Shown piece after piece: positions 10,220-35,572 of a stretch of DNA of 64,000 nt (within the stretch, counting starts at the first letter, position 1; every line of letters begins with the position of its first letter). This DNA is from a virus (lineage: Duplodnaviria; Heunggongvirae; Uroviricota; Caudoviricetes), in IMG/VR virus record IMGVR_UViG_3300012347_000338, positions 1 through 64,000 of that record, one strand, 5' to 3'. Below the pieces are notes generated by a model that saw only the letters and a program-made list of their open reading frames with translations, was not told where the DNA came from and did no database searches. A program made the translations under genes and the position numbers.

Positions 10220-10585
10220 CGCCCACCAGGCAGCGTCGCGCTCTTTGGCTTTGGTCATCTGATACGCGACGATCTTCTCGAGCTCCTTCTCCATCCGCTT
10301 CATGGCGGTGTTGAAGGATGCGTCTTTCTCTTCCGTTGACGCCCTGCCCTGGTCGAGCCAGGTGTGGCACGTGTAGCAACCCCACACGCCTTTGAAGTCG
10401 CTTACCTTGTAGCCCTTGCCCTTGCCATCCGAAAGCTTGTTGGAATGGCACAGAACGGTCGTGGCGGGGTCAAAACAGCAAACCCCAGGCACACGTAGCG
10501 TGCAGTCCTTATCGCGCGCCAGAGCCCTGTAATTCGCGTTCTCTTCGCGCTTGTGCTTTGGGATGCCGATCATAGGGGCAGCCAA
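10190..10585 (-). CDS. YbcO-like putative nuclease (DUF1364 family)
   Basis: C..RVPGVC....T.VL.H...GKG.KV.D...C..CH pattern shared with lambdoid YbcO. Confidence 0.6.
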   Translation of the reverse strand: MAAPMIGIPKHKREENANYRALARDKDCTLRVPGVCCFDPATTVLCHSNKLSDGKGKGYKVSDFKGVWGCYTCHTWLDQGRASTEEKDASFNTAMKRMEKELEKIVAYQMTKAKERDAAWWALERIRAIPA

Positions 10586-11001
10586 TCCACCCCGTTGCCA
10601 GAGTAAATGTCAAAGCTGATGGAGACTTCTACCGCTTCAACTGCGCCCAACCCGGCAGCCATGGCGCCCAGTGCGAAGTCACGGCCTGACCCCATGGCGG
10701 CAAAGTCGTTCTCGTACTCCACCGGCAGGAAGCTCTTCTCATAGAACTGAATCTTTCCCGCGGGCGTGACGACCATCAGCATCCCGTTGTCGTCGTCCTT
10801 CTGGATGTCGGGGAAGTCTTCCGGCTTGGCGCCGTTGGTGAACCAGCGGATCATTTCCATGCACGCATGGCCATCGCCGGCACATCCGATCAGGTGGCTG
10901 TTGATCTTAAAGATCTTGGTCATCTTGCCGTGCTTGCAGCCAGAGCTTGTGGCCTGTTTGTCGGCGGCCATCACGCCGCCTCTGTAGCAAATCGTGGTCA
11001 T
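10570..11001 (-). CDS. HslV-like Ntn-hydrolase/proteasome beta-type peptidase
   Basis: N-terminal MTTI, GCAGDG and AAMGSGRDFALGAMAAGL motifs align with HslV. Confidence 0.6.
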   Translation of the reverse strand: MTTICYRGGVMAADKQATSSGCKHGKMTKIFKINSHLIGCAGDGHACMEMIRWFTNGAKPEDFPDIQKDDDNGMLMVVTPAGKIQFYEKSFLPVEYENDFAAMGSGRDFALGAMAAGLGAVEAVEVSISFDIYSGNGVDWLPL

Positions 11002-11507
11002 CGCACCAATCGCGACACCGCACGCTCCGTCATTGCGTCAATCGATTCCAAAATGCCGATGAGCTTGGTGATCTCTTCGCGGTGCTTGCGCTGCACCGGA
11101 CGGCGGCCATCGCCGTGGCAGTGTTTGCAAGCCTTGGCCGATAGCACGGGCGAGTTCTCTTGGAGCTCAAAGCCGCGGCCTTGGCAGTGCGGGCAGACTG
11201 GTGCGATGTGATGGGCAAGCGCGCGCTCAGCGATTGTGCGGATTGCCTGGCCATTGAGGCGCCAGTTCATCTTGGCGTCAATGCGACGCACGAGCGCTTC
11301 GACGGCCTTGTAGGCATCCTTGAGCGCCAGGCGTGACGTCGTGGTGTGCAAGTGCAGCAGCGCGCTGGCAATGGCTGGATTGCGCGCCTCGGCGACGCCG
11401 GCAGCCATCACATAGTCCAGGTCTGTGCGGTGGTCAAAGTCCAGCGACAGATCCGATGAGTTCATTGCGACACCTAGTCGCTCTAACGCAGACGGCCTTG
11501 AGCTCAT
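10998..11507 (-). CDS. putative zinc-finger antitermination protein Q-like
   Basis: CPHCQG...CKHCHG double CxxC zinc motif; position at end of early operon. Confidence 0.35.
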   Translation of the reverse strand: MSSRPSALERLGVAMNSSDLSLDFDHRTDLDYVMAAGVAEARNPAIASALLHLHTTTSRLALKDAYKAVEALVRRIDAKMNWRLNGQAIRTIAERALAHHIAPVCPHCQGRGFELQENSPVLSAKACKHCHGDGRRPVQRKHREEITKLIGILESIDAMTERAVSRLVR

Positions 11508-11857
11508 CGCACTTCCTTTACTTCGATTCCATGCACCACCTTCATGAGTCGGCGCTTGAGTTGGTACTCGCGAGTCTTCATGCCTTTGACGTCCTCGATG
11601 ATCTTGTTGCCGAGGTGGTCGAGGTACTCAAAGTCCGCGATGTATTTGATGACGCGCTGCTTCTTGCCATCCATCACCACCGACGGGATGATTTCAAAGG
11701 ACGGCTGCAGCTGCAGTTCACTGATGTGGCCCGCCTTCTCTAGCGTTTTGAGTTGCACGTAGCGCGCAGCCTCGCGCTTGCTGGCGAAGGTGATGCCGTC
11801 AACTTGAGTTTTTACTGCGCCGTACTTGCTACGGACGTTGCGAACCGGCAGCACCAT
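11504..11857 (-). CDS. DUF1064-family phage protein
   Basis: KYGAVKTQVDGITFASKREAARY...ELQLQ..FEI...GKKQR..KYIADFEY family signature. Confidence 0.7.
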   Translation of the reverse strand: MVLPVRNVRSKYGAVKTQVDGITFASKREAARYVQLKTLEKAGHISELQLQPSFEIIPSVVMDGKKQRVIKYIADFEYLDHLGNKIIEDVKGMKTREYQLKRRLMKVVHGIEVKEVR

Positions 11858-12135
11858 CAGGCTTCGTTCGCTGCCTGTGTCAGTGCAGTACTCGGCTGCA
11901 GGGTGACGACCTTGCGAGGCGGGACCATGACCGTCTCACCGGTATGCAGATTGCGAGCTCGCTTCTCGCCACGCTGGACGACCTTGATGATCCCCAGGCC
12001 AAACAGCGCAACGCTGTCGCCTTTGGAGACGGCCTTCTTGGTGACGGCAACAGCCGACGACAACACGGTGCGCACGGTGCCTGCGGATTCACCCGAGACA
12101 TACGCAACGCGCTTGATAAATTCTTGCTTGAGCAT
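11857..12135 (-). CDS. HU/IHF-family DNA-binding protein
   Basis: GDSVALFGLGIIKVVQRGEKRARNLHTGETVMVP arm motif. Confidence 0.85.
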   Translation of the reverse strand: MLKQEFIKRVAYVSGESAGTVRTVLSSAVAVTKKAVSKGDSVALFGLGIIKVVQRGEKRARNLHTGETVMVPPRKVVTLQPSTALTQAANEA

Positions 12136-12234
12136 TAAACGGTTCCAACAATTTGTTTGTACTGGAACCGTTTATAGCATCAAGCTATCGGTTTGCTCCG
12201 ATGATTAACTGCAATGAATTTTGTCCATTGCAGT

Positions 12235-12726
12235 TCAGGCGTAGCGAAGCACCGTGTCGACGTGTTCGCGCAGCTGGTCTTCTGTCATGGTCGACGACGT
12301 GAGGATCTTCTTCAGGATCACATTGATCACGTCGCTGTACAGGGTCTCAAACTCATCCTCGCTCATGTTCGCGAAGCTGATTGACTTGGCCTCTACCCTC
12401 ACCTCACCGCGGGCGTTGTACACCGCGTCAAAGCGACCGCTCATGATGATTAAGTCTTTGCGGAAGCGGTCGAAGTTCGGCTCAACCTGCACGCCGCGGT
12501 ACTCCTGCGGCTCAATGGTCTCGGTCCAGATGTCGAAGGCATACTTGGCTAGCGTGAAGAACTTCTGCAGGAACTTGTAGTTGCGGATCTGACGCACCTC
12601 AACGCGCACCATTGAGCCAGCCTTGATCTTGCGGATCATCTCGGCATCTTCATCGGTCGCTGGGGCGAAGCCGCCTGTCGGCAGGCGGACCATTAGAAGC
12701 TCAGCCACGGTACGGCTCCCACACAT
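12235..12726 (-). CDS. hypothetical phage protein (DUF1367-like)
   Basis: 163-aa ORF; weak resemblance to DUF1367. Confidence 0.4.
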   Translation of the reverse strand: MCGSRTVAELLMVRLPTGGFAPATDEDAEMIRKIKAGSMVRVEVRQIRNYKFLQKFFTLAKYAFDIWTETIEPQEYRGVQVEPNFDRFRKDLIIMSGRFDAVYNARGEVRVEAKSISFANMSEDEFETLYSDVINVILKKILTSSTMTEDQLREHVDTVLRYA

Positions 12727-13060
12727 TGACGCCGGCAGCCTTGGCGCGACTGGTCATGTCTGCGGTACCGGCGCCACCAGGAAAAGCCACGACGCCGTCG
12801 ACGACCATCTCGATCATCTTCTGGTTGCGCATAGGGCCGGCGGCCTTGCCGTGCTCGCCCCAGTTTGCCGGCACGCTCAGGCATGGGATGCAGCGCTGGA
12901 ATGCCCAGGCGGCAGCAAGCGTGTCAGCACCCTCTGCGCCGCCGTGGATGATCATGCCGATGTCGACCTTGTTGGCCAGCGCATCAAGTGCCTTGTACGC
13001 GGCACGCATGTCGAAGTAGTCGCGCCCTCCGCAGACGATGAAGTTCTTCGCCTCGGACAT
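12701..13060 (-). CDS. SLOG-family/DUF2493 protein
   Basis: VCGGRDY...IIHGGAEGADTLAA.WA...P..W..HGKAAGPMRN...VAFPGGAGT signature. Confidence 0.55.
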   Translation of the reverse strand: MSEAKNFIVCGGRDYFDMRAAYKALDALANKVDIGMIIHGGAEGADTLAAAWAFQRCIPCLSVPANWGEHGKAAGPMRNQKMIEMVVDGVVAFPGGAGTADMTSRAKAAGVNVWEPYRG

Positions 13061-13260
13061 CAGACCATTCCGAACAGGTCAATGCGGTCACGCAAGATTG
13101 ATGAGTACTCGCCCATGGCCACCATCTGGCGGCGCAAAAGGTACTGATCTTGGTGCGACAGCGTGTGGTAGATGGGCGTGCCGATGAAGTTGGTCAAAGC
13201 CTCGAGCTTGGTGTCGAGATCCTTCTTCTCGTCGATTACGCGTTTTTGATGTGGTTGCAT
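13060..13260 (-). CDS. hypothetical protein
   Basis: small coupled ORF. Confidence 0.3.
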   Translation of the reverse strand: MQPHQKRVIDEKKDLDTKLEALTNFIGTPIYHTLSHQDQYLLRRQMVAMGEYSSILRDRIDLFGMV

Positions 13261-13409
13261 TTGGGTACTCCTAGTTGAACAATTCCTACTCCGTCTCCCA
13301 GCACCCAGAGGGCGCGGTTGATTGCGGCTTGCGACACAGTCGCGCCGGCCTTGACCTGGTCAAGGATGTCGTGAGCCTCAAGCTCTTCCTGGTTGCAGTG
13401 GTCACGCAT
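13236..13409 (-). CDS. hypothetical protein
   Basis: internal ATG overlapping DnaC-like stop. Confidence 0.3.
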   Translation of the reverse strand: MRDHCNQEELEAHDILDQVKAGATVSQAAINRALWVLGDGVGIVQLGVPKCNHIKNA

Positions 13410-14256
13410 CGCGCATCTCCTTGCGGGCAGTTGTGCGGTACGAGCTCCAATCGAATGGCACCCAGCGGGCAACCTCAGTCAAGCGGTCAAACACCCGGTC
13501 GCCTACGGCCACACGGAAGTCGTCCTTGCCAAGGTTGGTCATCAGGATGGTCGGACGCACCTCGCGGTAGCGACGGTCCATCACGTCGAACAGAATCGAG
13601 CGCTCGCCATCGGTGCCGTACTGGACGCCGACCTCATCGATCACCAGAAGCGGGATCGCCTGCAGCTTGGTCAGCAGCTGCGACTCGGACATCTCACTGT
13701 CTCGGCGCCACGTGTCGCGCAGCTTGCGGATCAGATCCATCAGGGTGACGTACGCGCCGACATGCTTGGGCAGGATCTCTTGCAGGATCGCCGCGGCCAG
13801 GTGGCTCTTGCCGGTACCAGGGTTGCCAGACAGCACCAGCGACGCGCCTGTCTTCAGGTTGCGGTCAAACTCTTTCGCATAGGTGTAGCAGATGTCGCGG
13901 ACGTTGAACGCCTTGGTCCCCTGCTCTACCCGGTAGTTGTCGAAGGTGCGGCCGACAAAGCGCGGAGGGATCGCGGTGTGCTCGAGCAAGGCCTCAACCT
14001 GCAAGCGGCTGGCTTCTTGCTCAGCACGGATGCGCCTAGCCTCCAACTCAAACTCAGCGTCCTCAAGGCATGTTGGGCACTTGGACCAGACGTCGCGACT
14101 GAAGCCGCCGTAGTTGTGGCGCGTTCCAGTCGCCGTGTACTCGCCATGAGCCTCGCATGTGCGGATCTCGGTCGGCAATGCCGTGGCACCAATCGCACCG
14201 CCAGCCAGAGCCTTGGTGATGTTGCCCATCAGGTCAGCTGAAGGAGCCGTCATCAT
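13402..14256 (-). CDS. DnaC/IstB-like AAA+ replicative helicase loader
   Basis: Walker A GNPGTGKSHLA, Walker B LLVIDEVG; internal ATG 14256 preceded by GGGAGGG. Confidence 0.85.
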   Translation of the reverse strand: MMTAPSADLMGNITKALAGGAIGATALPTEIRTCEAHGEYTATGTRHNYGGFSRDVWSKCPTCLEDAEFELEARRIRAEQEASRLQVEALLEHTAIPPRFVGRTFDNYRVEQGTKAFNVRDICYTYAKEFDRNLKTGASLVLSGNPGTGKSHLAAAILQEILPKHVGAYVTLMDLIRKLRDTWRRDSEMSESQLLTKLQAIPLLVIDEVGVQYGTDGERSILFDVMDRRYREVRPTILMTNLGKDDFRVAVGDRVFDRLTEVARWVPFDWSSYRTTARKEMRDA

Positions 14257-14956
14257 TGATGCCCTCCCGGTAGTTGACCTGAGCGAAGCCAGCGTGCGAG
14301 CTCGGGCGTTTGGCGGATGAGCCGACCGCCTTGCTGTTGCGCACCCAGTTGCGCCAGGTTGCCTGCCAGTCCAGCTTGGCGCCGTCCTTGCCAGCCTTAG
14401 CAACCCAGAAGTCCTTGAACCGGTCTGCCACGTCCTGGATGTTCAGGTCTGGTCGCTCAGTGGTTGCCCAAGCAGCCCAGTCTTCTGGCAACACCCAGTC
14501 TTGCGCCAAGCGCGAAGCGCGGGGCTTACTAGCTTGTCCTGGTTCTTGGTTAGTGGTTCTTGGTTCTTGGTTAGGTGGCGCTTCGTCACCAACCTTGGGC
14601 GATTCGTTCACGGTACGAGCACGAGTCGTGCTCTTTTCCTTACGCTTCGCCTCCCTTTCGACAGCGATTCGTTTGTTCGTCTCGGCCTTTGAGTGGTACT
14701 CAGCGATCTCTTCCTTGATCCGGCTTTGCACGTAAACGCCGTCCTCAAGGGTGAAAAAGCGGGTCAAGACGAACTTGACGGCCTCGAGCTCCTCAGTGCT
14801 GGAGGCCCAAGTCCACTCGATTGCATCCTCAAGCGTGGGGAATCGCTCACGGTCGTAGCACGAGTCGATCAGAAGCGTGTACGCACCGTGCTGCAACATG
14901 GACAGCCGTCCAGTCTTCTTGGCGTAATCACCGATGTTCTTTTTGTAGTAGTGCAT
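14234..14956 (-). CDS. replication protein, YdaU/DUF1376 N-terminal domain
   Basis: MHYYKKNIGDYAKKTGRLSMLQHGAYTLLID matches DUF1376. Confidence 0.75.
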   Translation of the reverse strand: MHYYKKNIGDYAKKTGRLSMLQHGAYTLLIDSCYDRERFPTLEDAIEWTWASSTEELEAVKFVLTRFFTLEDGVYVQSRIKEEIAEYHSKAETNKRIAVEREAKRKEKSTTRARTVNESPKVGDEAPPNQEPRTTNQEPGQASKPRASRLAQDWVLPEDWAAWATTERPDLNIQDVADRFKDFWVAKAGKDGAKLDWQATWRNWVRNSKAVGSSAKRPSSHAGFAQVNYREGINDDGSFS

Positions 14957-15040
14957 CAGGCGCCAATCTCTTCAAGCGTCGGTTCCAAACCGCATGTCAT
15001 TGGAAATTTCACATCATCTTTCTTCCTCGGTGTCCGAGAA

Positions 15041-15124
15041 TAAAAAAAGCCTTAGTCGGGAATCTCATCAGCTTTCACTGACGTTGGCGGACTGGGTTGG
15101 TTCCAGCAGATTCCCGGCTAAGGC
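15041..15124 (-). terminator. candidate intrinsic terminator/attenuator inside leftward early operon
   Basis: 19-bp stem (1 mismatch) GCCTTAGCCGGGAATCT/AGATTCCCGACTAAGGC, about 45-nt loop, then UUUUUUUAUU on minus strand. Confidence 0.4.
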
Positions 15125-15218
15125 TTACCAACATCCCCGCCAAGGGATCTAACTTTCGGAGCGGATTGTAGCAACATTTTCTGCGCTCCCAACTTTTTGT
15201 TTGCTCCGACTGAAAAAT

Positions 15219-15545
15219 TTACGCGTGTTGTATGGCCGCAGCAGCCGGCGACGGTTGTTCCGTTTTCCGGAAATCTGCAGGCTCATCTTTTGCTGGCCGA
15301 ATCGGCCACAGGCATTCGTCAGCAATCGGCCCAGCCATCGTTCGGATGAAGTTGGTGCCGGCGAGATCACCCCAGATCAGCGGCGATCCAAGCGATTCGC
15401 ATAGCCAGACCTGCCTGGACTCGGTAGGCATCACGATCCCAATGTCAGCAGGGTCATAGGCTTTGAGCACCTCGACGATCCTCATCAGGTTCTCTGGGTT
15501 GGCCGCGCGTATGACAAACGCGAGGTCTCCGGGTTGGCAGTTCAT
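15219..15545 (-). CDS. first gene of leftward operon (cro position), paralog of 2574..2849
   Basis: divergent from repressor; MNCQPGDLAFVIR N-terminus paralogous. Confidence 0.5.
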   Translation of the reverse strand: MNCQPGDLAFVIRAANPENLMRIVEVLKAYDPADIGIVMPTESRQVWLCESLGSPLIWGDLAGTNFIRTMAGPIADECLWPIRPAKDEPADFRKTEQPSPAAAAIQHA

Positions 15546-15700
15546 GGGCTAATACCTTTCATCAAGTAGTGACAATTCACTTTAAGTGTTGCAACATTTT
15601 TGCTCGGTTGATTGTCGAAACAAACGATTGGCTTGTCAACGGATTGTTGACCGTGTATGTTGGTCTCTCGTGAACTTTTGTTTGCAACGGGAGACGATTC
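15546..15700. promoter_or_regulatory. divergent early promoter/operator region
   Basis: palindromes TGTTGCAACA and GTCAAC-N5-GTTGAC; TTGACC/TTGACA -35 boxes on both strands. Confidence 0.45.
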
Positions 15701-16198
15701 GTGAAGGTGAAAGATCAGATCAGGGCTAGGCGTGAGCAGCTTGGAATGACCATTGATGAGCTTGCCCGTCGTCTTGAGGTATCGGGCCAGGCGGTTCGTC
15801 ATTGGGAGAGTGGTCGCAGCTTCCCTGGCAAGTCCAAGGCAGGGGCGCTAGAGGCGGCACTGAGCATTACGCTCGACTGGACCGAGGGTGCTAGACCCGT
15901 TTCTAGCGGTAACGCGATGTCTGCCCTTGTGAACCGGTCAGACATCGACCTGTTGTTGTTGATCTGCCAGCTACCCGAGCAGGCTAAGGAGCTCATCGCA
16001 AACCTAGTACGTATGCATCTCACAGCCCTAGAGGGTGGTCGCAAGGCCTTCTCTGAGAAAGTCAGTCAAACGGGCGTGTCTTCGTTCACAGAGAAAAATG
16101 TTGCATCAGCAGCTGGAGAAGTAACGAATGCCAAACCAGACAGCAACTCAGCCAAGGGCTCCAACAAGCGTGCTGCGCCTCGTCGAAAAGCAGCCTGA
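15701..16198 (+). CDS. CI-like XRE-family HTH repressor
   Basis: GTG start after GGGAG; MTIDELARRLEVSGQAVRHWESG HTH_3 motif; divergent from early operon. Confidence 0.7.
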   Translation: MKVKDQIRARREQLGMTIDELARRLEVSGQAVRHWESGRSFPGKSKAGALEAALSITLDWTEGARPVSSGNAMSALVNRSDIDLLLLICQLPEQAKELIANLVRMHLTALEGGRKAFSEKVSQTGVSSFTEKNVASAAGEVTNAKPDSNSAKGSNKRAAPRRKAA

Positions 16199-16391
16199 CC
16201 CAACAATCGTTGAGCAACTTCGTGACCTGTTGCGAGACGCTGAGACCGGCAGGATTCGTGGCCTGCTCGCGTCAGCGCACTACGGCGGCAATCACTATGG
16301 GTACTACGGCGGCGGCACGATGTGCAGCAACCAGACCATCGGCCTAGCAGCGATTTACAATCTTGCAACAAAACTGTTGACAGACAACTGA
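16128..16391 (+). CDS. questionable ORF (Gly/Tyr-rich)
   Basis: overlaps repressor 3' end by 29-70 nt; mixed codon usage. Confidence 0.2.
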   Translation: MPNQTATQPRAPTSVLRLVEKQPDPTIVEQLRDLLRDAETGRIRGLLASAHYGGNHYGYYGGGTMCSNQTIGLAAIYNLATKLLTDN

Positions 16392-16404
16392 ATGTTGATA
16401 TACT
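16377..16404 (+). promoter_or_regulatory. near-consensus sigma70 promoter TTGACA-N16-TGaTATACT
   Basis: read directly; points into ORF-free region. Confidence 0.5.
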
Positions 16405-16559
16405 CGCTTCGCCACCTGGTACATGTGGTTCACTGATTGCTCGGTGTCTCCTGTTGAATGCGCTGGCATTCTCAATGTACCGACCAGCCGATTGGTGCCC
16501 GTAAGGCACCACTATCAAATCAGCGGCGGCGTGGATGGACGCGCTAGGCACGGTGCAGA

Positions 16560-18120
16560 AACATTCAATGCGGCGAGGGATTGATCTCCCGGCGGTCGCA
16601 CTGCGAAGGTGCTGATAGGAAAGTGGAGTGGGCTCTGTTGACGAACAACCCAACGCAAACGCTGGCAGTGTGCGGCAACCTGGAATCAAGCCCAGGCCGC
16701 TGATTTGATGGTGCGAGCGAGGTGCTGACTCGCAGGGCGTGGAACCCCCAGAAGCCTACTCCACGGTAGGCCATGCAATGAGAAGCCGGAGATCAGCGCC
16801 GGCCACCATCAACAAATTTCTCTCGCAGGTTCGCCTGTGACTTGTCGGCCCAAGAGACGGGGTGCCGCACAAGCTGGATTGTTAGTAATTTGCGACATGA
16901 GAACGCCTGGAGTCAGAAGTCCAGCAGAACGGCGTGACAACTCGGAGAGACGAGTACTTTCAAGTCAAGGGCTGAGCACATCATTGATGGAGCTACAGTA
17001 ACGGCCCTTGTCTTGATGGTGAATGCGCAGGCTGAGGCGACACACACAGTAGCGGGGCTCTGATAGGCGTGTAACACCGAAAGCTGGAGATCAGCGCCGG
17101 CCACCATCAACAAAAAGGCTGGATGACTTCATCCTTCAAGACGGCCTCTAAATGTCTAGAAGGGTCTCACTCGACAGTCGAGCGGTACTGGGCGGGCTGT
17201 GCAATTGAGCCACATCACAGAGTGCGAGGAGAACCGGCCAACAGGTCTCTGGCACCCCGGAAAGACGGGGACTTTCAAGTCTTTGCATACCGCGTGTGCA
17301 AAGACTTGATGGTCGTGAAGCAGCGGTGGGTCAGCGCCATCGCATGCGTTTGAAAATCAGCCTCTGCTTTATGAGAGTGCTTCACGACCAACAGACGACA
17401 TGGCCTAACCAGCCACCCTCTGGCATGCGGGGTCACGTATGCAAAGCGAGATGATCTGCTTGGCGTGGTGCCAAGTTGATGCCGGCGTAATCTCGTATGC
17501 TGCAAGACCTTAGTGCAGCACCTATACGCATGGAGATTGAGAACCGTCAGAGAGCGCGTCAGCAATCAATGGCAAACGTCATACAGTCTCCAGCCGTGTT
17601 GGTGAGTGGTAGTCGCTAGGCCCATAGCCTAGAAAGACGCCGATGAATATTGTTCTACCTCCGCTGTTCCGTCGGAGCCTGCGCTCAAAAATGAACGGAG
17701 CCACTGACACCCGAAACATCAGCGGGATACCCGGATGTGACCTGCACGGAGAGACGTGAGCGGAAACCCGCAAGGGCCGCTGGGACTGACGAGATTCAGC
17801 GGTCTGTGGAATTCAGACCACCAACACGCATGGAGATTGCAGTCCACGGTTGCGCCGTGACACGGATCACAGGGGTCGCTCCCTGGTCAGTCTCCAGCCG
17901 TGTTGGTTAAGCGCGATGACACTGTGCGTCCTTGCACGGAGGGTCGGCGTAGGGTTGGGGATTCCCGGCCGCCAACAACCTATTCATTGCGGCGACCTTT
18001 CGCCGAGCGTGGCACGACCTGTGGGCACAAGCCAGCACAGGGCTCGGTAAACAGCTTCTCATGCAATCGAAACTCGGGCCGCTTAGCATTTTTGCCGGGG
18101 ACGAATGAGAGGAACGTGCT
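16560..18120. repeat. tandem diverged repeat units of about 300 bp (two subfamilies)
   Basis: GCCGGAGATCAGCGCCGGCCACCATCAACAAA at 16785 and 17084 (299-bp spacing); ACGCATGGAGATTG at 17526 and 17826; GTCTCCAGCCGTGTTGGT at 17586 and 17890; ACTTTCAAGTC at 16956 and 17271. Confidence 0.6.
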
Positions 18121-18151
18121 AGAAAGCCCGGCATTTTTTGTCGGGCTTTCT
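18121..18151 (+). terminator. hairpin AGAAAGCCCG-loop-CGGGCTTTCT followed by T-rich tract
   Basis: 10-bp perfect stem, 11-nt loop; ACTTTCTGTTGTG downstream. Confidence 0.35.
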
Positions 18152-18159
18152 ACTTTCTG

Positions 18160-18187
18160 TTGTGCGCCCAACTTTTTGGTGCATAAT
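18160..18187 (+). promoter_or_regulatory. conserved phage promoter motif copy 1 (TTGTGC-N16-CATAAT)
   Basis: GCGCCCAACTTTTTGGTGCATAAT; near-identical copies at 21868 and 27592. Confidence 0.5.
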
Positions 18188-18214
18188 CGCCTCACTTAAA
18201 CACAGAGGCGGTTA

Positions 18215-18335
18215 TGGAAATTCATTGGGCTTGGTTGATTGTGGCGACGCAACTTGGTGTTGCCGTCGGCATCTTCCTTGTCGCGCTCATGCAGGCAAAT
18301 CGCGAGCGTCGCGATGAGTCAGAAAGGGGCCAATG
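18215..18335 (+). CDS. small membrane peptide (about 40 aa)
   Basis: ATG after AGAGGCGG; hydrophobic helix; below ORF-track cutoff. Confidence 0.3.
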
Positions 18336-21702: not shown

Positions 21703-21860
21703 AAAGACGCAGCGACGGCACGGCATTCGACTGGCGAAAGAAGCCACCAGTGATACCAGAGTTCGTGCCAGCGGAAGATCCGCCGCCCGAGGCCAGCGAG
21801 CGCATTGACGTTCTGTTGGCACGCAAGCCAAAAGACCCCAAGAAACAGTCGGACTCTTAA
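21699..21860 (+). CDS. hypothetical protein
   Basis: internal ATG 21699. Confidence 0.3.
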   Translation: MKRRSDGTAFDWRKKPPVIPEFVPAEDPPPEASERIDVLLARKPKDPKKQSDS

Positions 21861-21867
21861 ATTTTTG

Positions 21868-21895
21868 TTGGCGGACCAACTTTTTGTTGCATAAT
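21868..21895 (+). promoter_or_regulatory. conserved phage promoter motif copy 2 (TTGGCG-N16-CATAAT)
   Basis: GCGGACCAACTTTTTGTTGCATAAT. Confidence 0.5.
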
Positions 21896-27362: not shown

Positions 27363-27584
27363 ATGAACGGAAAAATGGCCAAGCGCTTGCGCAAGATGGC
27401 AAAACTCGAGATGTCGAGCAACGCAACAACGGTTGACCGCGAGCTCGTATTGGCACGTGTGCACAACGGCGACCGCGTGATCAACGAGCCGATGTCGGTG
27501 CGTGCGATGTACTTGAAGCTCAAGTGGGCGCTCAAGGAATCGGTGCGCAATCCGCAAGCCCGAGTAATTTCGTCGGATATGTAA
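27363..27584 (+). CDS. hypothetical protein
   Basis: 73-aa ORF. Confidence 0.4.
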   Translation: MNGKMAKRLRKMAKLEMSSNATTVDRELVLARVHNGDRVINEPMSVRAMYLKLKWALKESVRNPQARVISSDM

Positions 27585-27591
27585 CTTTTAG

Positions 27592-27619
27592 TTGGCGCAC
27601 CAACTTTTTGTAGCATAAT
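27592..27619 (+). promoter_or_regulatory. conserved phage promoter motif copy 3 (TTGGCG-N16-CATAAT)
   Basis: GCGCACCAACTTTTTGTAGCATAAT; -10 ends 7 nt before ATG 27626 (possible leaderless mRNA). Confidence 0.5.
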
Positions 27620-27625
27620 CACCGC

Positions 27626-32999: not shown

Positions 33000-33559
33000 T
33001 GCTTGAGCGAATCATGACCACACCGACGAATCAACTTGCGAACCCGACTGCTGTCGGGCCTTTGCCTGACTTCTTGGACCCGTCAGTGCTAGGCGGGCTT
33101 GACCCGTTTGAGGACTGGTTGACTTGGCCTGGTGTAGACGTCCCGCCTATGCCTTTGCGCATGGGTATCGACGACCCGCGTCGCGACCGCCTATCTGTTG
33201 CTGTCACCGCGGCGACTGTCTACGCCTTGCGCACGGTCACCAACAACGGCGAGGTCATGGACTTCGATCCCGATGAGTTGGTCATGCGTGTGCAGGTCGG
33301 CATGTTCGGCTACTTCTCGCCTGACGGCCTCGGCTTCTCTGAGCGCGACAACCCAGAGGACTCTGGCCACTGCCTTGACATGCTCGGCGAGCCAGATCCC
33401 AACGCGGCTTGGCTGAGCCTGGCGCACGTGATCTGCACCGAGATGGGTATCCCAGAGGGTCACATCAATGACCGCATGCCAATCCTGCGCGACATCCTCG
33501 AAGGTCAGCGCAAGGGCACGAGCGACGTCGGGATAGTTGGAAAGACAGGTGACTGGTAA
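32999..33559 (+). CDS. hypothetical protein
   Basis: 186 aa. Confidence 0.5.
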   Translation: MLERIMTTPTNQLANPTAVGPLPDFLDPSVLGGLDPFEDWLTWPGVDVPPMPLRMGIDDPRRDRLSVAVTAATVYALRTVTNNGEVMDFDPDELVMRVQVGMFGYFSPDGLGFSERDNPEDSGHCLDMLGEPDPNAAWLSLAHVICTEMGIPEGHINDRMPILRDILEGQRKGTSDVGIVGKTGDW

Positions 33560-33816
33560 TGAAAACAGCAATCTACATTGAAGACGGCGTGGTGCAGCTG
33601 GTGCTCACGCCCGAGGGTGAGTTTGAGAACAACGCCCTGTGCAGCTTTGAGAATCAGGCAACACGGACGCAGATCAAAGTTGGCCAGTTCTACAGCTGCA
33701 AAGGCGGATGGACGCGCCACCAAGACATGGAAATGACGGGGTACGGCAAAGACGACCGTGACCGCAGCTTGATCATCCGCATCGAAAAAACCAATGAAAC
33801 TAATCCGACTTCCTGA
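33559..33816 (+). CDS. hypothetical protein
   Basis: coupled. Confidence 0.4.
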   Translation: MKTAIYIEDGVVQLVLTPEGEFENNALCSFENQATRTQIKVGQFYSCKGGWTRHQDMEMTGYGKDDRDRSLIIRIEKTNETNPTS

Positions 33817-33991
33817 AGTGCTCGAGCGCGTGTCACTCAAGAAGACCAAGGTCTACAGCTTGATCGCCGAGGATGAGTTCCCGCGGCCGGTCAAGCTTGG
33901 GGCTGCGAGTGCGTGGGTTGAGGCCGAGATTGACGAGTGGCTTGCCGAGCGTGCATGTGCTCGCACACCCAGTCCGACCAACGCTGCATGA
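33794..33991 (+). CDS. alpA: AlpA-family transcriptional regulator/excisionase
   Basis: LIRLPEVLERVSLKKTKVYSLIAEDEFPRPVKLG signature. Confidence 0.8.
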   Translation: MKLIRLPEVLERVSLKKTKVYSLIAEDEFPRPVKLGAASAWVEAEIDEWLAERACARTPSPTNAA

Positions 33992-35165
33992 GCTCGACGC
34001 GGTCATCCCAGAACTCGGTCCGGTCGTAGGCGCCGTCCAGGCCGCTCTCGTCGGTCTTATGCGACAACTGTTTCTCAATGTAGTCTTTGTCTAGTTTGAG
34101 GCGCTCTGCAATGACCGTTCTCGCCGTGGCGCGAAAGCCGTGGTGGCAGTGCAGACCCTTGTAGCCGAGCGAGTCCAGCGCCTCGCCCACGGCGCCCTCG
34201 CTGAGTGGCTGGTCGTAGCGCTTACCGGGGAAGAGCCAACCCTCGGTGCCCACAATGCCTTGGTGCTGCTTCAGGATCTCAACGACCTGCCGTGACAGCG
34301 GCACCCAGTGCTCGCGGTCCTTCTTCATCTTGTCTTTGGTCAGGCGCCAGACACCCTCCTCCAGATCAAACGCATCCCACTTGGCCGCGCGCAACTCCGT
34401 GGGCCGCTGAAAGAGGTGCGCTGACAGGATCATCAGGTTGCGCACGATGGGGCTTCCGTAGCCAGCAATCGCCTTGAACAGCACCGACACCTCTTTGTGC
34501 CTGGTGACCGCCGGGAAGTGCCCGCGCTCGGCCGCGATGAAGCTGCGCAGCTGGTTGGTCGGCACGGGCGAGTGCTCCACGGTACCGACCTCCATGCCGT
34601 ACTCGTACATCTGCTTCATGTACATGCGCACTCGGCGCAGCATCACCGGAGCGTTGCGCGATTCGATGGTCCGCAGGATGTCCATGACCTCGTCGCGGGT
34701 CACCTCGGACGGATGCTTGGCGCCAATGGCGGGCAGCACATCCTTGATGAACGCCGCGGTGATGTTGCCGCGGTAGACCTCTGAGGTGCGCTTCTTCTTG
34801 AGCCAGTCTTCGAAGAGCGTGCGCACCGTGACCTTGCCAGCCTTGATGGCCGTCTTGACTGCGGCGCGGTCAGCGCGTCGCTTGGCCACCAGGTCGATGC
34901 CGCCGGCAGACTCGTTGCGTGCCGCCTTGGCCAGGTCGCGTGCGCGCTTGAGTGTGACGTGCGGATAGGCGCCCAGCGTGACCGGCTTGCGCTTACCGTC
35001 AACCCAAGTAAGCAGCTGCCAAGAGGCGCCGCCGTTCTCGCGCACAACCAGGTGCAGGTTGTTGCCGTCAGCGATTCGCACCCGCGTTTGCTTGGTCGCG
35101 GCGTCTGCGCAGGCCTTCTTGAACTTGGCCTCGAGGCCGGTCGCTGTGAGGAGCTCTTTTGCCAT
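33891..35165 (-). CDS. int: tyrosine integrase with N-terminal arm-binding (DUF4102) domain
   Basis: R...HGFRATART...Y catalytic blocks; start likely ATG 35165 (alt 35189). Confidence 0.9.
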   Translation of the reverse strand: MAKELLTATGLEAKFKKACADAATKQTRVRIADGNNLHLVVRENGGASWQLLTWVDGKRKPVTLGAYPHVTLKRARDLAKAARNESAGGIDLVAKRRADRAAVKTAIKAGKVTVRTLFEDWLKKKRTSEVYRGNITAAFIKDVLPAIGAKHPSEVTRDEVMDILRTIESRNAPVMLRRVRMYMKQMYEYGMEVGTVEHSPVPTNQLRSFIAAERGHFPAVTRHKEVSVLFKAIAGYGSPIVRNLMILSAHLFQRPTELRAAKWDAFDLEEGVWRLTKDKMKKDREHWVPLSRQVVEILKQHQGIVGTEGWLFPGKRYDQPLSEGAVGEALDSLGYKGLHCHHGFRATARTVIAERLKLDKDYIEKQLSHKTDESGLDGAYDRTEFWDDRVELMQRWSDWVCEHMHARQATRQSRPQPTHSQPQA

Positions 35166-35185
35166 GGTTTTCTCTCTGAGAAACG

Positions 35186-35435
35186 CCACGGTATCACAGC
35201 ACTTGCTGGTATCACGTGTGGTACCACACGGTGGTACGGATGCCCGCGGACAATGACGGAAGCCCGCGAACGGGCAATCGCTTCGAAATCAATCACTTAC
35301 GGGGGCTTGCGGAATCCGGCGGACCTCTGCGGAGGCCACCTTGGCGGAGACGGAGGGATTCGCAGAGCGAGACGTGGCGCGGTTCTTCAGGGTGCTTCCG
35401 GTGTGGTATCACTGCCAGTATCACTGGCGATGCCC
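35186..35435. other. candidate attP: arm-type repeats flanking core
   Basis: GGTATCAC at 35190, 35208, 35404; AGTATCAC 35417; GGTACCAC/GTGGTACC inverted 35220-35238. Confidence 0.45.
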
Positions 35436-35572
35436 TGCTAGGAAGTGCGCCAGATTGCGACCAGTAGGCCGATGACGACGAGGGCAATGATCGGGTGCGC
35501 TCCCGCTGCGACCAGTAGGCCGAGCAGCACGAGGGGTCCAACAATCAAATGCACGCGCGCATCATAAGGGCT

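Follow-up and report, generated by a model that had tools for sequence, protein, structure and literature searches.

The genes rnaC and rnaD in the tRNA cluster of phage T4 specify the stable RNAs C and D (species 1 and 2), which to our knowledge have no function assigned. The c4 and CI RNAs lie in phage immunity or leader regions, the processing stalks of rRNA enclose their cargo at the tip, and lambdoid phages carry tRNA genes in the leader of the late operon (the NinG-to-holin gap). YrlA RNA mimics the T and D arms of tRNA and is encoded with the Ro60 gene (PMC4201824). The put RNA of HK022, about 70 nt long, forms two stem-loops in a V shape with a triplex, binds RNA polymerase and suppresses termination (PMC9378689). 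Finally, an intergenic cluster of the N4-like Pseudomonas phage LUZ7 (orf69-orf70) gives rise to abundant RNAs of less than 250 nt, at least one of them by processing; the intergenic region 42644-43041 (L264 in our collection) yields small RNAs late in infection (PMC9163698). Here we analyse a gene-free block at positions 16392-18213 of a 64,000-nt stretch of viral DNA (hereafter, the window), corresponding to positions 1 to 64,000 of the IMG/VR record IMGVR_UViG_3300012347_000338 (Caudoviricetes). Two RNA families are represented in the block by at least four instances in all, and their helices are under selection on the rightward strand.

Two covarying RNA modules in a gene-free block

The block extends from the stop codon of an 87-aa open reading frame (ORF; 16391) to the next start codon at 18214. 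The first-pass annotation of this DNA had found no credible ORF here. Indeed, no ORF longer than 99 aa is wholly contained in the block, and neither Pfam nor PHROGs gave a match for the four longest ORFs inside or overlapping it, unlike the flanking genes, which do match families in these collections. A 207-aa minus-strand ORF (16066-16689) overlaps the left edge. The block was compared with more than 260 loci (L numbers below) from phage, viral, metagenome and E. coli collections. The nearest relatives are the uncultured contigs L005, which is syntenic with the window and whose flanking genes show 71-84% nucleotide identity, L008 (77 kb) and L011 (82 kb); a further search for syntenic loci with the downstream NrdR-like protein gave L005 alone. 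The widely conserved segments are 16783-16813, 17014-17115, 17116-17182, 17249-17271, 17526-17608 and 17821-17910. Indels in the most conserved stretch break the reading frame between homologues, and conservation follows the stems. The block is non-coding.

The first of the two families is a tRNA-shaped module with a pair of complementary loops. A covariance model (R1) identifies two copies on the plus strand, the canonical copy B at 17015-17111 (69.9 bits, E=8e-14) and copy A at 16707-16813 (41.9 bits, E=2e-7), and no other significant match in the 64-kb window. The architecture of the family was derived from 116 distinct instances, all selected with fixed stem slots of 7, 4 and 5 nt, which proved to be 95-100% paired. 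It consists of a 7-bp closing stem (P1), an AAU linker, a 4-bp stem with the 8-nt loop AGGCUGAU (P2), a variable centre of 38-178 nt (median 56), a 5-bp stem with the 9-nt loop AGAUCAGYR (P3), and the 3′ strand of P1, which abuts P3 with no spacer. In copy B, the P1 stem (GAUGGUG/CACCAUC) and AAU are followed by a GCGC P2 with loop AGGCUGAG, a 42-nt centre and the P3 hairpin GCUGG-AGAUCAGCG-CCGGC. This is the most widely conserved segment of the block, found in up to 45 loci. Copy A has the same P1 sequence, a variant P2 (GCGAG-GUGCUGA-CUCGC) and GCCGG-AGAUCAGCG-CCGGC as P3; its P2 and P3 loops can pair (GCUGA x UCAGC), its folding z-score is -3.0 (16703-16816), and conservation of the last 31 nt at its 3′ end extends to as many as 31 loci.

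The closing stem P1, which lies outside the search pattern, is 95-100% paired at every position in the 116 instances. As many as five standard types of pair occur at a single position; position 2, for instance, has G-C in 59, U-A in 37, A-U in 12 and C-G in 4. The covariation score of P1 is 0.666, the maximum in shuffled alignments being 0.225. When an alignment of 35 sequences was scored over the whole module, 98.7% of the cells were paired, 12 of the 22 pairs had changed on both sides, and the covariation score was 0.374 as against 0.115 in shuffles, none of 500 reaching the observed value; slid controls were 30-51% paired. The P2 and P3 loops are complementary (GCUGAU x AUCAGC) and their sole pattern-free position covaries (G-C 93, A-U 12, G.U 10, A.C 1); they are thus joined by a 6-bp kissing interaction.

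Stacking of P1 on P3 makes an uninterrupted 12-bp minihelix with the dimensions of the acceptor/T domain of tRNA, and P2 takes the place of a D-like arm. The kissing loops stand where tRNA has its elbow and the variable domain where it has the anticodon arm. Neither a T-loop (UUCRANY) nor the GG of the D-loop elbow was found; the loops AGAUCAGYR and AGGCUGAU pair with each other. P1 is extended by one U-A pair in 74% of the instances. CCA occupies tail positions 3-5 in 19 of 116 instances, with 5 expected, and is thus enriched yet present in a minority; copies A and B end in AACAAA. ARAGORN reported no tRNA gene across the 64-kb window, and none in the block when its threshold was relaxed down to 90% of normal.

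The stretch GTGAATGCGCAGGCTGA...GGAGATCAG..CCGGCCACCA is not confined to the source phage. A 40-nt probe matches 208 cultured phage records, with Klebsiella, Pseudomonas, Escherichia, Salmonella and Burkholderia among the hosts. When the query was a 116-nt copy taken from a Salmonella phage, 136 cultured phage records matched, among them Stx2-converting phages, mEp460, HK633, a P1-like phage, Ackermannviridae and E. coli N4-like phages; the same query matches 707 of 5426 complete E. coli genomes (13%). In all 30 E. coli matches listed, the module is unannotated in RefSeq. Going by the host names given in the records, the cultured phages that carry it represent at least 23 host genera, and a degenerate version of the pattern recovered at least 120 viral contigs.

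The second family is a hairpin with an internal loop (model R2), again present twice on the plus strand. Copy 2 (17821-17906), with the canonical arms CCAACACGCAUGGAGAUUG and CAGUCUCCAGCCGUGUUGG around a 48-nt insert, scores 61.4 bits (E=9e-17), the reverse strand scoring 30.9 bits; its z-score is -4.7 (17819-17911). Copy 1 (17521-17602) has a weakened 8-bp P1 (CCUAUACG), a 2x2 loop CA/GC, the P2 stem UGGAGAUUG/CAGUCUCCA and a 44-nt insert, and scores 54.5 bits (E=1e-14; reverse strand, 15.5 bits) with a z-score of -4.3 (17519-17607). In the consensus, a stem of 19 positions is made of an 8-bp P1, an invariant 2x2 internal loop (C.C, A.G) and a 9-bp P2. The inserts are very diverse and range from 3 to 81 nt, the minimal versions amounting to a loop of 3-4 nt. 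The 3′ arm GTCTCCAGCCGTGTTGG matches at least 119 viral contigs, nearly all of which have the partner arm 3-81 nt upstream. The two-arm pattern had no match in 185,579 bacterial and archaeal genomes.

Pairing in P2 is kept at 98-100%, with G.U, A-U and G-C alternating. Wobble pairs are frequent (G.U in 55 of 122 hairpins at position 14 and in 115 of 122 at position 17) and the other strand would have A.C mismatches at these places. Hairpin copies of L005 show double compensatory changes, such as GAGGAUUG/CAGUCCUC. In the R2 alignment, 96.5% of the cells are paired, five pairs have changed on both sides and none of 500 shuffles reaches the observed covariation, a figure to be read with the caveat that the search pattern fixed most 3′ arms. 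The element that follows the 122 hairpins is a tRNA-shaped module in 11 cases, a tRNA-like D arm in 8 and another recurrent hairpin in 16. In two enterobacterial phage loci (L143, 1380-1530; L145, 1370-1515), a diverged hairpin (CACAACAGGUAAGAGCAUUGA...UCAGUGCUCUUGCCGUUGUGG) lies directly upstream of the tRNA-shaped module and overlaps it; R2 misses this version. A similar 3′ arm precedes the module in the E. coli prophage L262 too, so the pair of hairpin and module may be an old unit.

Canonical T-arms (5-bp stem, UUCRANN loop) occur in about 5% of the module centres (6 of 116) and about 3% of the hairpin inserts (4 of 122), roughly 10 times the shuffled expectation; examples are L021, L074, L080, L150 and L180, the last holding most of a tRNA within the tRNA-shaped module. 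Hidden true T-arms were considered as the general content of the variable centres and set aside, only 5% carrying them.

The stems of the two families covary across hundreds of unrelated phage sequences, which identifies them as selected RNA structures, and both the G.U pairs and the covariance-model scores fit the rightward strand only. On these points the first-pass annotation, which had read conserved stems around variable inserts as a structured rightward RNA, was borne out. Two of the three complementary pairs that it listed, TGGAGA/TCTCCA and TTGATGGTG/CACCATCAA, are real helices that covary in homologues. The third, GATCTCCCGG/CCGGAGATC, is not: it is at chance level (by our own arithmetic, about 1.5 ten-nt inverted pairs are expected in 1.75 kb), and no counterpart was seen by eye in L005.

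The architecture that the annotation had proposed, four or five tandem, diverged units of about 300 bp, did not hold. All four of its repeated blocks are present: 34 nt at 16783 and 17081 (97% identity), 32 nt at 16935 and 17250 (81%), 21 nt at 17519 and 17819 (90%) and 20 nt at 17584 and 17888 (100%). Tandem Repeats Finder, however, returned no rows at a minimum score of 30, and a sensitive self-BLAST of the block gave short blocks, one 90-nt pair at 68% and nothing else. The spacing of about 300 nt arises because two module types each occur twice. No CRISPR-like or ToxI-like array is present either, as no unit is repeated head to tail. Rather than one large structured RNA or an array of a single unit, the block strings together autonomous modules of at least six kinds. 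The annotation's statement that the RNA matches no nameable family was upheld when the proposed Rfam check was run. With Rfam 15 (4227 models) at gathering thresholds, the window has no match; a scan of the block at E<=10 gave weak terminator-like or chance matches and no tRNA, and a scan of 15 related loci gave matches to tRNA only. The earlier reading was therefore right about a real, unusual structured RNA outside the curated families and wrong about its repeat architecture. We found no paper that prints the module sequences; a catalogue of 10,006 candidate viral RNAs may list them (PMC10690425).

Borders, further modules and genome setting

A sigma-70-type promoter, TTGACA-16-(TG)n-TATACT with a TG extension, is predicted on the plus strand at 16377-16404, where it overlaps the stop codon of the upstream 87-aa ORF. 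As claimed at the outset, it is near consensus: agreeing at 11 of 12 positions, it outranks every other sigma-70 match in the 10 kb between 12000 and 22000. The region aligns with L005 and L008 (83% identity to L008), L005 having TTGACG-16-TATACT at the same place. Transcription would be expected to start near 16411. At the other end, a hairpin resembling an intrinsic terminator had been reported with a 10-bp stem at 18121-18151; the hairpin is there, on the plus strand, but is better described as a 14-bp stem at 18120-18152 whose core, GCCCGGCA/UGUCGGGC, is GC-rich and which is followed by a U-rich tail. L005 retains the hairpin, there with a better T-run, and Rfam gives weak terminator-type matches only over it. 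Between promoter and terminator, no further promoter-like or terminator-like site was found on the plus strand. Over 17965-18245, a stretch that includes the segment before the terminator (17978-18119, plus strand), identity to L005 is about 80%. At three places in the window (18120-18200, 21848-21895 and 27568-27622), a promoter-like TTG...CAACTTTTTGGTGCATAAT comes after a terminator hairpin, and the arrangement is conserved in L005 (2616-2670). The TTG...CAACTTTTTGGTGCATAAT motif may mark a class of phage promoters that separates operons.

Several other modules, all on the plus strand, accompany the two main families. A leader hairpin, GGUGCC-CGUAA-GGCACC (16494-16510), was read from the sequence, and the same hairpin precedes a hairpin module in the viral contig L067. 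It is followed by a long-range stem (16510-16713), in which an 18-nt arm at 16510-16527 pairs with 16696-16713 around some 170 enclosed nt. The inverted repeat is 94% complementary, the helix forms in the minimum-free-energy fold, and the 5′ arm motif ATCA[A/C]ATCAGCGGCGGCGTGGA recurs in L005, L006 and L017. Because its 3′ arm overlaps P1 of copy A, the long-range stem and the closing stem of copy A are mutually exclusive. Two small hairpins with GARAGA loops, linked by a direct repeat (second copy 17250-17281), are ACUCG-GAGAGA-CGAGU at 16940-16966 and CCCCG-GAAAGA-CGGGG at 17255-17281, each followed by ACUUUCAAGUC; the second is conserved in 7-8 loci. The copies differ at three pairs (A-U/C-G, U-A/C-G and G-U/G-G), two of the changes being compensatory, and hairpins of the form NCCGG-AAAGA-CGGGN recur upstream of hairpin modules in other contigs.

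Cassette C (17307-17393) has a 16-bp stem, UGAUGGUCGUGAAGCA/UGCUUCACGACCAACA, 94% complementary, around GCAUGCGUUUGAAAAUCAGCC..CUGCUUUAUGAGAG, and a z-score of -3.8 (17303-17397). Its homologue in L005 (1179-1253) is flanked by TTGATGGTG/CACCATCAA, and its motif CTGCTTTATG recurs in L048, L052 and L114. Two more cassettes are putative. The long cassette D (17598-17825), a reading of the sequence with no model support, would be closed by GUUGGUG (17598-17604) and CACCAAC (17819-17825); a hairpin, GGUCUG-UGGAAUU-CAGACC, abuts its 3′ strand, and its interior is 88% identical to L005 (17709-17840) and 91% to L008 (17644-17718). Cassette E, of 77 nt and thus tRNA-sized (17901-17977), would be closed by UGUUGGU/GCCAACA and may be a degenerate tRNA or a tRNA-like module. 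Near it, ARAGORN places a tRNA-Gly differently, at 17930-18013, only when run at 80% of its normal threshold, and R1 has no match there. Although L005 and L008 have flanking genes collinear with those of the window, their modules come in a different order, and modules occur singly in quite different phages and prophages.

Between the two module families lies an ultraconserved 47-nt core, CUGGAUGACUUCAUCCUUCAAGACGG-N4-6-UAAAUGUCYA(N)GAAGGGU (17119-17165, plus strand), present once in the window. It is invariant in ten aligned sequences except at variable spacer positions, and exact search patterns for it recur in the 8 viral and 11 metagenome contigs that they retrieved. Indels of 1 nt and 2 nt inside the core show that it is not coding. 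No covariation was seen in it, and a variant in L021 breaks its first hairpin; it seems that sequence rather than structure is kept here. An extended element around the core (17117-17239, plus strand), closed by GGCUGG/CCGGCC, is limited to closer relatives and has a z-score of -0.8; RNAalifold gave no useful covariation for a 190-nt element around the core because the sequences are too similar.

The core connects the block with tRNA arrays. It is the sole landmark that the block has in common with related Schitoviridae of Xanthomonas and Stenotrophomonas, and in three of these, Pokken, RiverRider and PB119, it lies within the array. In L011 it comes a few bases after a tRNA-Gln, and in L017 it is equally close behind a T-arm-like 3′ end. 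In L011, modules are interleaved with tRNA-Gln and tRNA-Arg, and in the E. coli N4-like phage nithesis the tRNA-shaped module adjoins tRNA genes. In three contigs (L092, 2352-2459; L047, 606-713; L050, 653-756), tRNA-model matches of 104-108 nt start inside the 3′ arm of a hairpin; these matches have normal acceptor, D and T arms and about 35 extra nt in the anticodon region, and ARAGORN is silent on them. The core also occurs outside tRNA arrays, some 60-110 nt upstream of ssb and other genes in unrelated contigs (L012/L018, L007, L010/L014/L019), and may itself be a mobile regulatory or RNA element.

Same-strand genes that recur beside the tRNA-shaped module were tabulated at 115 loci, with median distances. 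Upstream are CI-type repressor genes (9 loci, 733 nt) and NinG (9 loci, 1498 nt). Downstream are holin (12 loci, 238 nt), lysozyme (6 loci, 444 nt), Rz (6 loci, 1018 nt), HNH endonuclease (9 loci, 929 nt) and large terminase (16 loci, 889 nt). These neighbourhoods are operon leaders, namely those of the early-left, the late and the packaging operons. The copies in E. coli JJ1886 and an Stx2a phage occupy a gap of about 720 nt after cI, with a PL-like promoter on their upstream side and, on the downstream side, two terminator hairpins ahead of yfdPQR. The svsR/C0293 RNA was considered as a candidate and rejected; it lies within or at the 3′ end of cI. Tiny hypothetical proteins of 29-57 aa are annotated over module regions in L145 (Klebsiella phage Magnus, 21212-24241), L266 (nithesis, 33073-38205) and L003 (PB119). 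These are probably spurious calls over non-coding RNA; in nithesis they are on both strands.

The source phage is N4-like (Schitoviridae). A 3928-aa protein encoded on the minus strand (35640-47426) has the size of the virion RNA polymerase, and DNA matches around the block are solely to N4-like phages of Xanthomonas and Stenotrophomonas. No close cultured relative was found, megablast of a 12-kb query giving only short matches to Acinetobacter phages. At 14538-14951, stretches of 47-146 nt show 80-96% identity to genes annotated 'primosomal protein' in Acinetobacter baumannii phages of 45 kb, which may reflect a shared domain or a recent exchange. A 430-aa ORF tried as a marker of relatedness proved to be a tail fibre and was uninformative. 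The block is preceded by an HTH_3/XRE regulator (15701-16198, plus strand) and followed by genes for an NrdR-type zinc-ribbon protein and a GNAT acetyltransferase. The window thereby repeats the prophage layout of an XRE-type gene, the block, a terminator and genes. Minus-strand genes from about 10570 to 15802 face the regulator in a layout that resembles an immunity region, and the RNA block starts right after the regulator, a position like that of the tRNA-shaped module behind cI in prophages of E. coli.

Possible functions of the block

On balance, we are inclined to read the block as a processed operon of small RNAs, each made of a scaffold and a cargo. Host sigma-70 RNA polymerase would start near 16411 and stop at the 18120-18152 hairpin. 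The resulting RNA of about 1.75 kb would fold into a chain of self-contained modules, each combining a conserved scaffold with a fast-changing insert, and the enzymes that mature host tRNA and rRNA would free stable small RNAs from it by cuts at the borders of the modules, RNase P acting at the 7-bp acceptor-like stems and RNase III in the hairpins of about two turns. The released scaffolds would protect and present the variable inserts, which would be the working parts and may act in trans on molecules of the host or of rival phages. The tRNA dimensions of the stems (7, 4 and 5 bp), the enrichment of CCA and the small RNAs of LUZ7 speak for processing, in a manner that is suggestive only; in their geometry the modules are compatible with substrates of RNase P and RNase III.

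Further extensions of this reading are more doubtful. One, which takes the two scaffolds as uncurated, widespread phage RNA families, is that they form a natural display system, in which the tRNA-shaped minihelix, locked by the pairing of its loops, and the long internal-loop hairpin would each present a hypervariable insert. If so, phages and prophages, including Stx2 phages and 13% of the complete E. coli genomes, might make nuclease-resistant, precisely excised small RNAs, a proposal that we regard as tentative. Equally speculative is the idea that the inserts act on targets in the host or in rival phages, for example as decoys or antisense RNAs against defence systems.

A number of observations weigh against a processed operon. 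Its promoter, its terminator and every processing step are predictions from the sequence. N4-like phages transcribe their early and middle genes with polymerases of their own, so it is an assumption that the sigma-70 promoter is used. Neither the tRNA model nor ARAGORN accepts the modules, the T-like loop has 9 nt and is no T-loop, and most copies lack CCA; for these reasons recognition by RNase P is uncertain. Complementarity of the inserts to the rest of the window does not exceed that of shuffles or chance. The order of the flanking genes differs from that in Pokken-type phages, and the link to tRNA arrays consequently hangs on the shared core. Finally, the modules usually sit in leaders of long operons, oriented as the downstream genes, which fits a role in cis equally well.

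That last point introduces the main rival, which leader positions favour and which we nevertheless hold unlikely: the modules would be a cis-acting leader, acting on their own transcript or on the polymerase that makes it (resistance to Rho or terminators, in the manner of put RNA) or stabilising or processing the downstream mRNA (18214 onward). The module is on the strand of the downstream gene, after CI-type repressor genes in 9 loci and before holin in 12 and large terminase in 16, and the E. coli prophage copies are placed between a PL-like promoter and the terminator hairpins before yfdPQR, a layout of which the window has its own version. Terminator-like hairpins lie within 120 nt downstream in 26% of cases as against 12% in controls, and an untranslated RNA of 1.75 kb would otherwise lie open to Rho. 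On the other hand, no terminator is near the module in three quarters of cases. In the Q-to-holin gap, Q already provides antitermination, and in the window a separate promoter-like motif comes after the terminator. Multiple copies, several module types and hypervariable inserts would be unexpected for an element that binds polymerase, and the architecture is unlike the two stem-loops and triplex, about 70 nt in all, of put RNA (PMC9378689).

Less probable still are elements that work at the level of DNA, with RNA structure incidental: cassettes for recombination or shuffling, miniature mobile elements bounded by inverted repeats, or sites to which proteins bind, for instance an origin. Such elements would account for the reordering of modules between close relatives, for the finding of the same scaffolds with unrelated inserts and of the same inserts in different contigs, for the unusual conservation of the stem sequences themselves, and for a 47-nt core that lacks covariation and has its first hairpin broken in L021. 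They sit badly with the compensatory changes, which preserve pairing while the sequence changes, and with the frequent strand-specific G.U pairs, which become A.C mismatches in the opposite strand or in a cruciform. R2 scores the sense strand 30-39 bits higher, the orientation is always that of the neighbouring genes, and the two-arm hairpin pattern is absent from the 185,579 bacterial and archaeal genomes searched.

Decay of a tRNA gene array into pseudogenes and spacers of no present function appears to us quite improbable. It draws on the presence of the core in the tRNA arrays of relatives, on the lack of tRNA in the window, on tRNA-sized cassettes with acceptor-like stems (17901-17977) and on the true T-arm hairpins in some inserts elsewhere (6 of 116 and 4 of 122). 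Decay would hardly leave modules that, far from being degraded tRNAs, make up separate families in which loops stay invariant and substitutions compensate one another across hundreds of unrelated phages, individual fold z-scores of -3 to -4.7, and a promoter and a terminator that are intact and conserved. Hidden genes for very small proteins or recoded ORFs, suggested by ORFs of 76-99 aa (such as 17123-17353) and by the tiny hypothetical proteins annotated in the homologous regions of PB119, Magnus and nithesis, can practically be dismissed, given that the four longest ORFs have no Pfam or PHROG match, that 1-nt and 2-nt indels shift the frame between homologues in the most conserved stretch, that conservation tracks paired stems and not codons, and that tiny ORFs elsewhere run on both strands over the same RNA modules.

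Whatever their role, the two modules of the block are very common, strongly covarying and unannotated phage RNA scaffolds. Some of the gene-free stretches that phage annotations leave blank or fill with spurious ORFs, as in Magnus, nithesis and PB119, are built from reusable, structurally selected RNA modules. The R1 and R2 covariance models, with their covariation tables, could seed RNA family entries and improve phage annotation. The dimensions point to maturation by the tRNA machinery and raise the question, testable in E. coli, of what a phage gains from a tRNA-shaped carrier RNA that has no anticodon. Were the display system real, the window would be its richest known example, an operon of cassettes only where relatives have tRNA genes.

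Comparison with described RNAs

Among described RNAs, put RNA shares a setting with the tRNA-shaped module: it too is found just downstream of early promoters and upstream of terminators, and in the lambdoid prophages that carry the module, no N gene is seen from the promoter up to the first gene. Compared by its published description, put RNA differs from the R1 module in having neither a closing stem nor loop-loop pairing. The hairpin module, for its part, recalls the RNase III hairpins of T7 early RNA and of rRNA operons, with which it shares a stem of about two turns with a small internal loop, a position between functional RNAs and a cargo at the tip. It differs from them in a stem sequence far more conserved among unrelated phages than RNase III should need and in the existence of versions with a loop of 3-4 nt.

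The LUZ7 cluster lies between the replication genes on the ssb side and the gene for virion RNA polymerase, and the stretch of nithesis that combines tRNA genes and modules fills the same slot; the block of the window is elsewhere in the genome. At LUZ7, the best R1 score was 11.6 bits (E=2.1), outside the orf69-70 gap, and R2 had no match. The T4 cluster resembles the block in being likewise gene-free, in one orientation and composed of several small structured RNAs; rnaC and rnaD are directly beside tRNA-Arg, and rnaC has a T-arm-like hairpin. In contrast to the T4 cluster, the window has no tRNA, and its modules have loop-loop pairing and a hypervariable centre. Run on the T4 cluster with filters off, R1 gave 5.2 bits at best; since it finds nothing there, the likeness is one of analogy and not of homology.

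The tRNA-like RNAs cut by RNase P (c4 antisense RNA of P1/P7, CI RNA of P4, tmRNA and YrlA) offer the nearest parallel in form. The module differs from them in its loop sequences and in the mutual pairing of its loops; no complementary target was found for it in the window, and the window, the block and 15 related loci have no Rfam match to any of them (the related loci match tRNA only). What it has in common with these RNAs is an acceptor-like closing stem and tRNA-like proportions, and in tmRNA and YrlA, as in the module of the window, other sequence replaces the anticodon arm. The setting of c4 and CI is echoed as well, in the 9 loci where a module of the window type comes just after a CI-type repressor gene. 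We assign the block to the phage clusters of tRNA-like stable RNAs.

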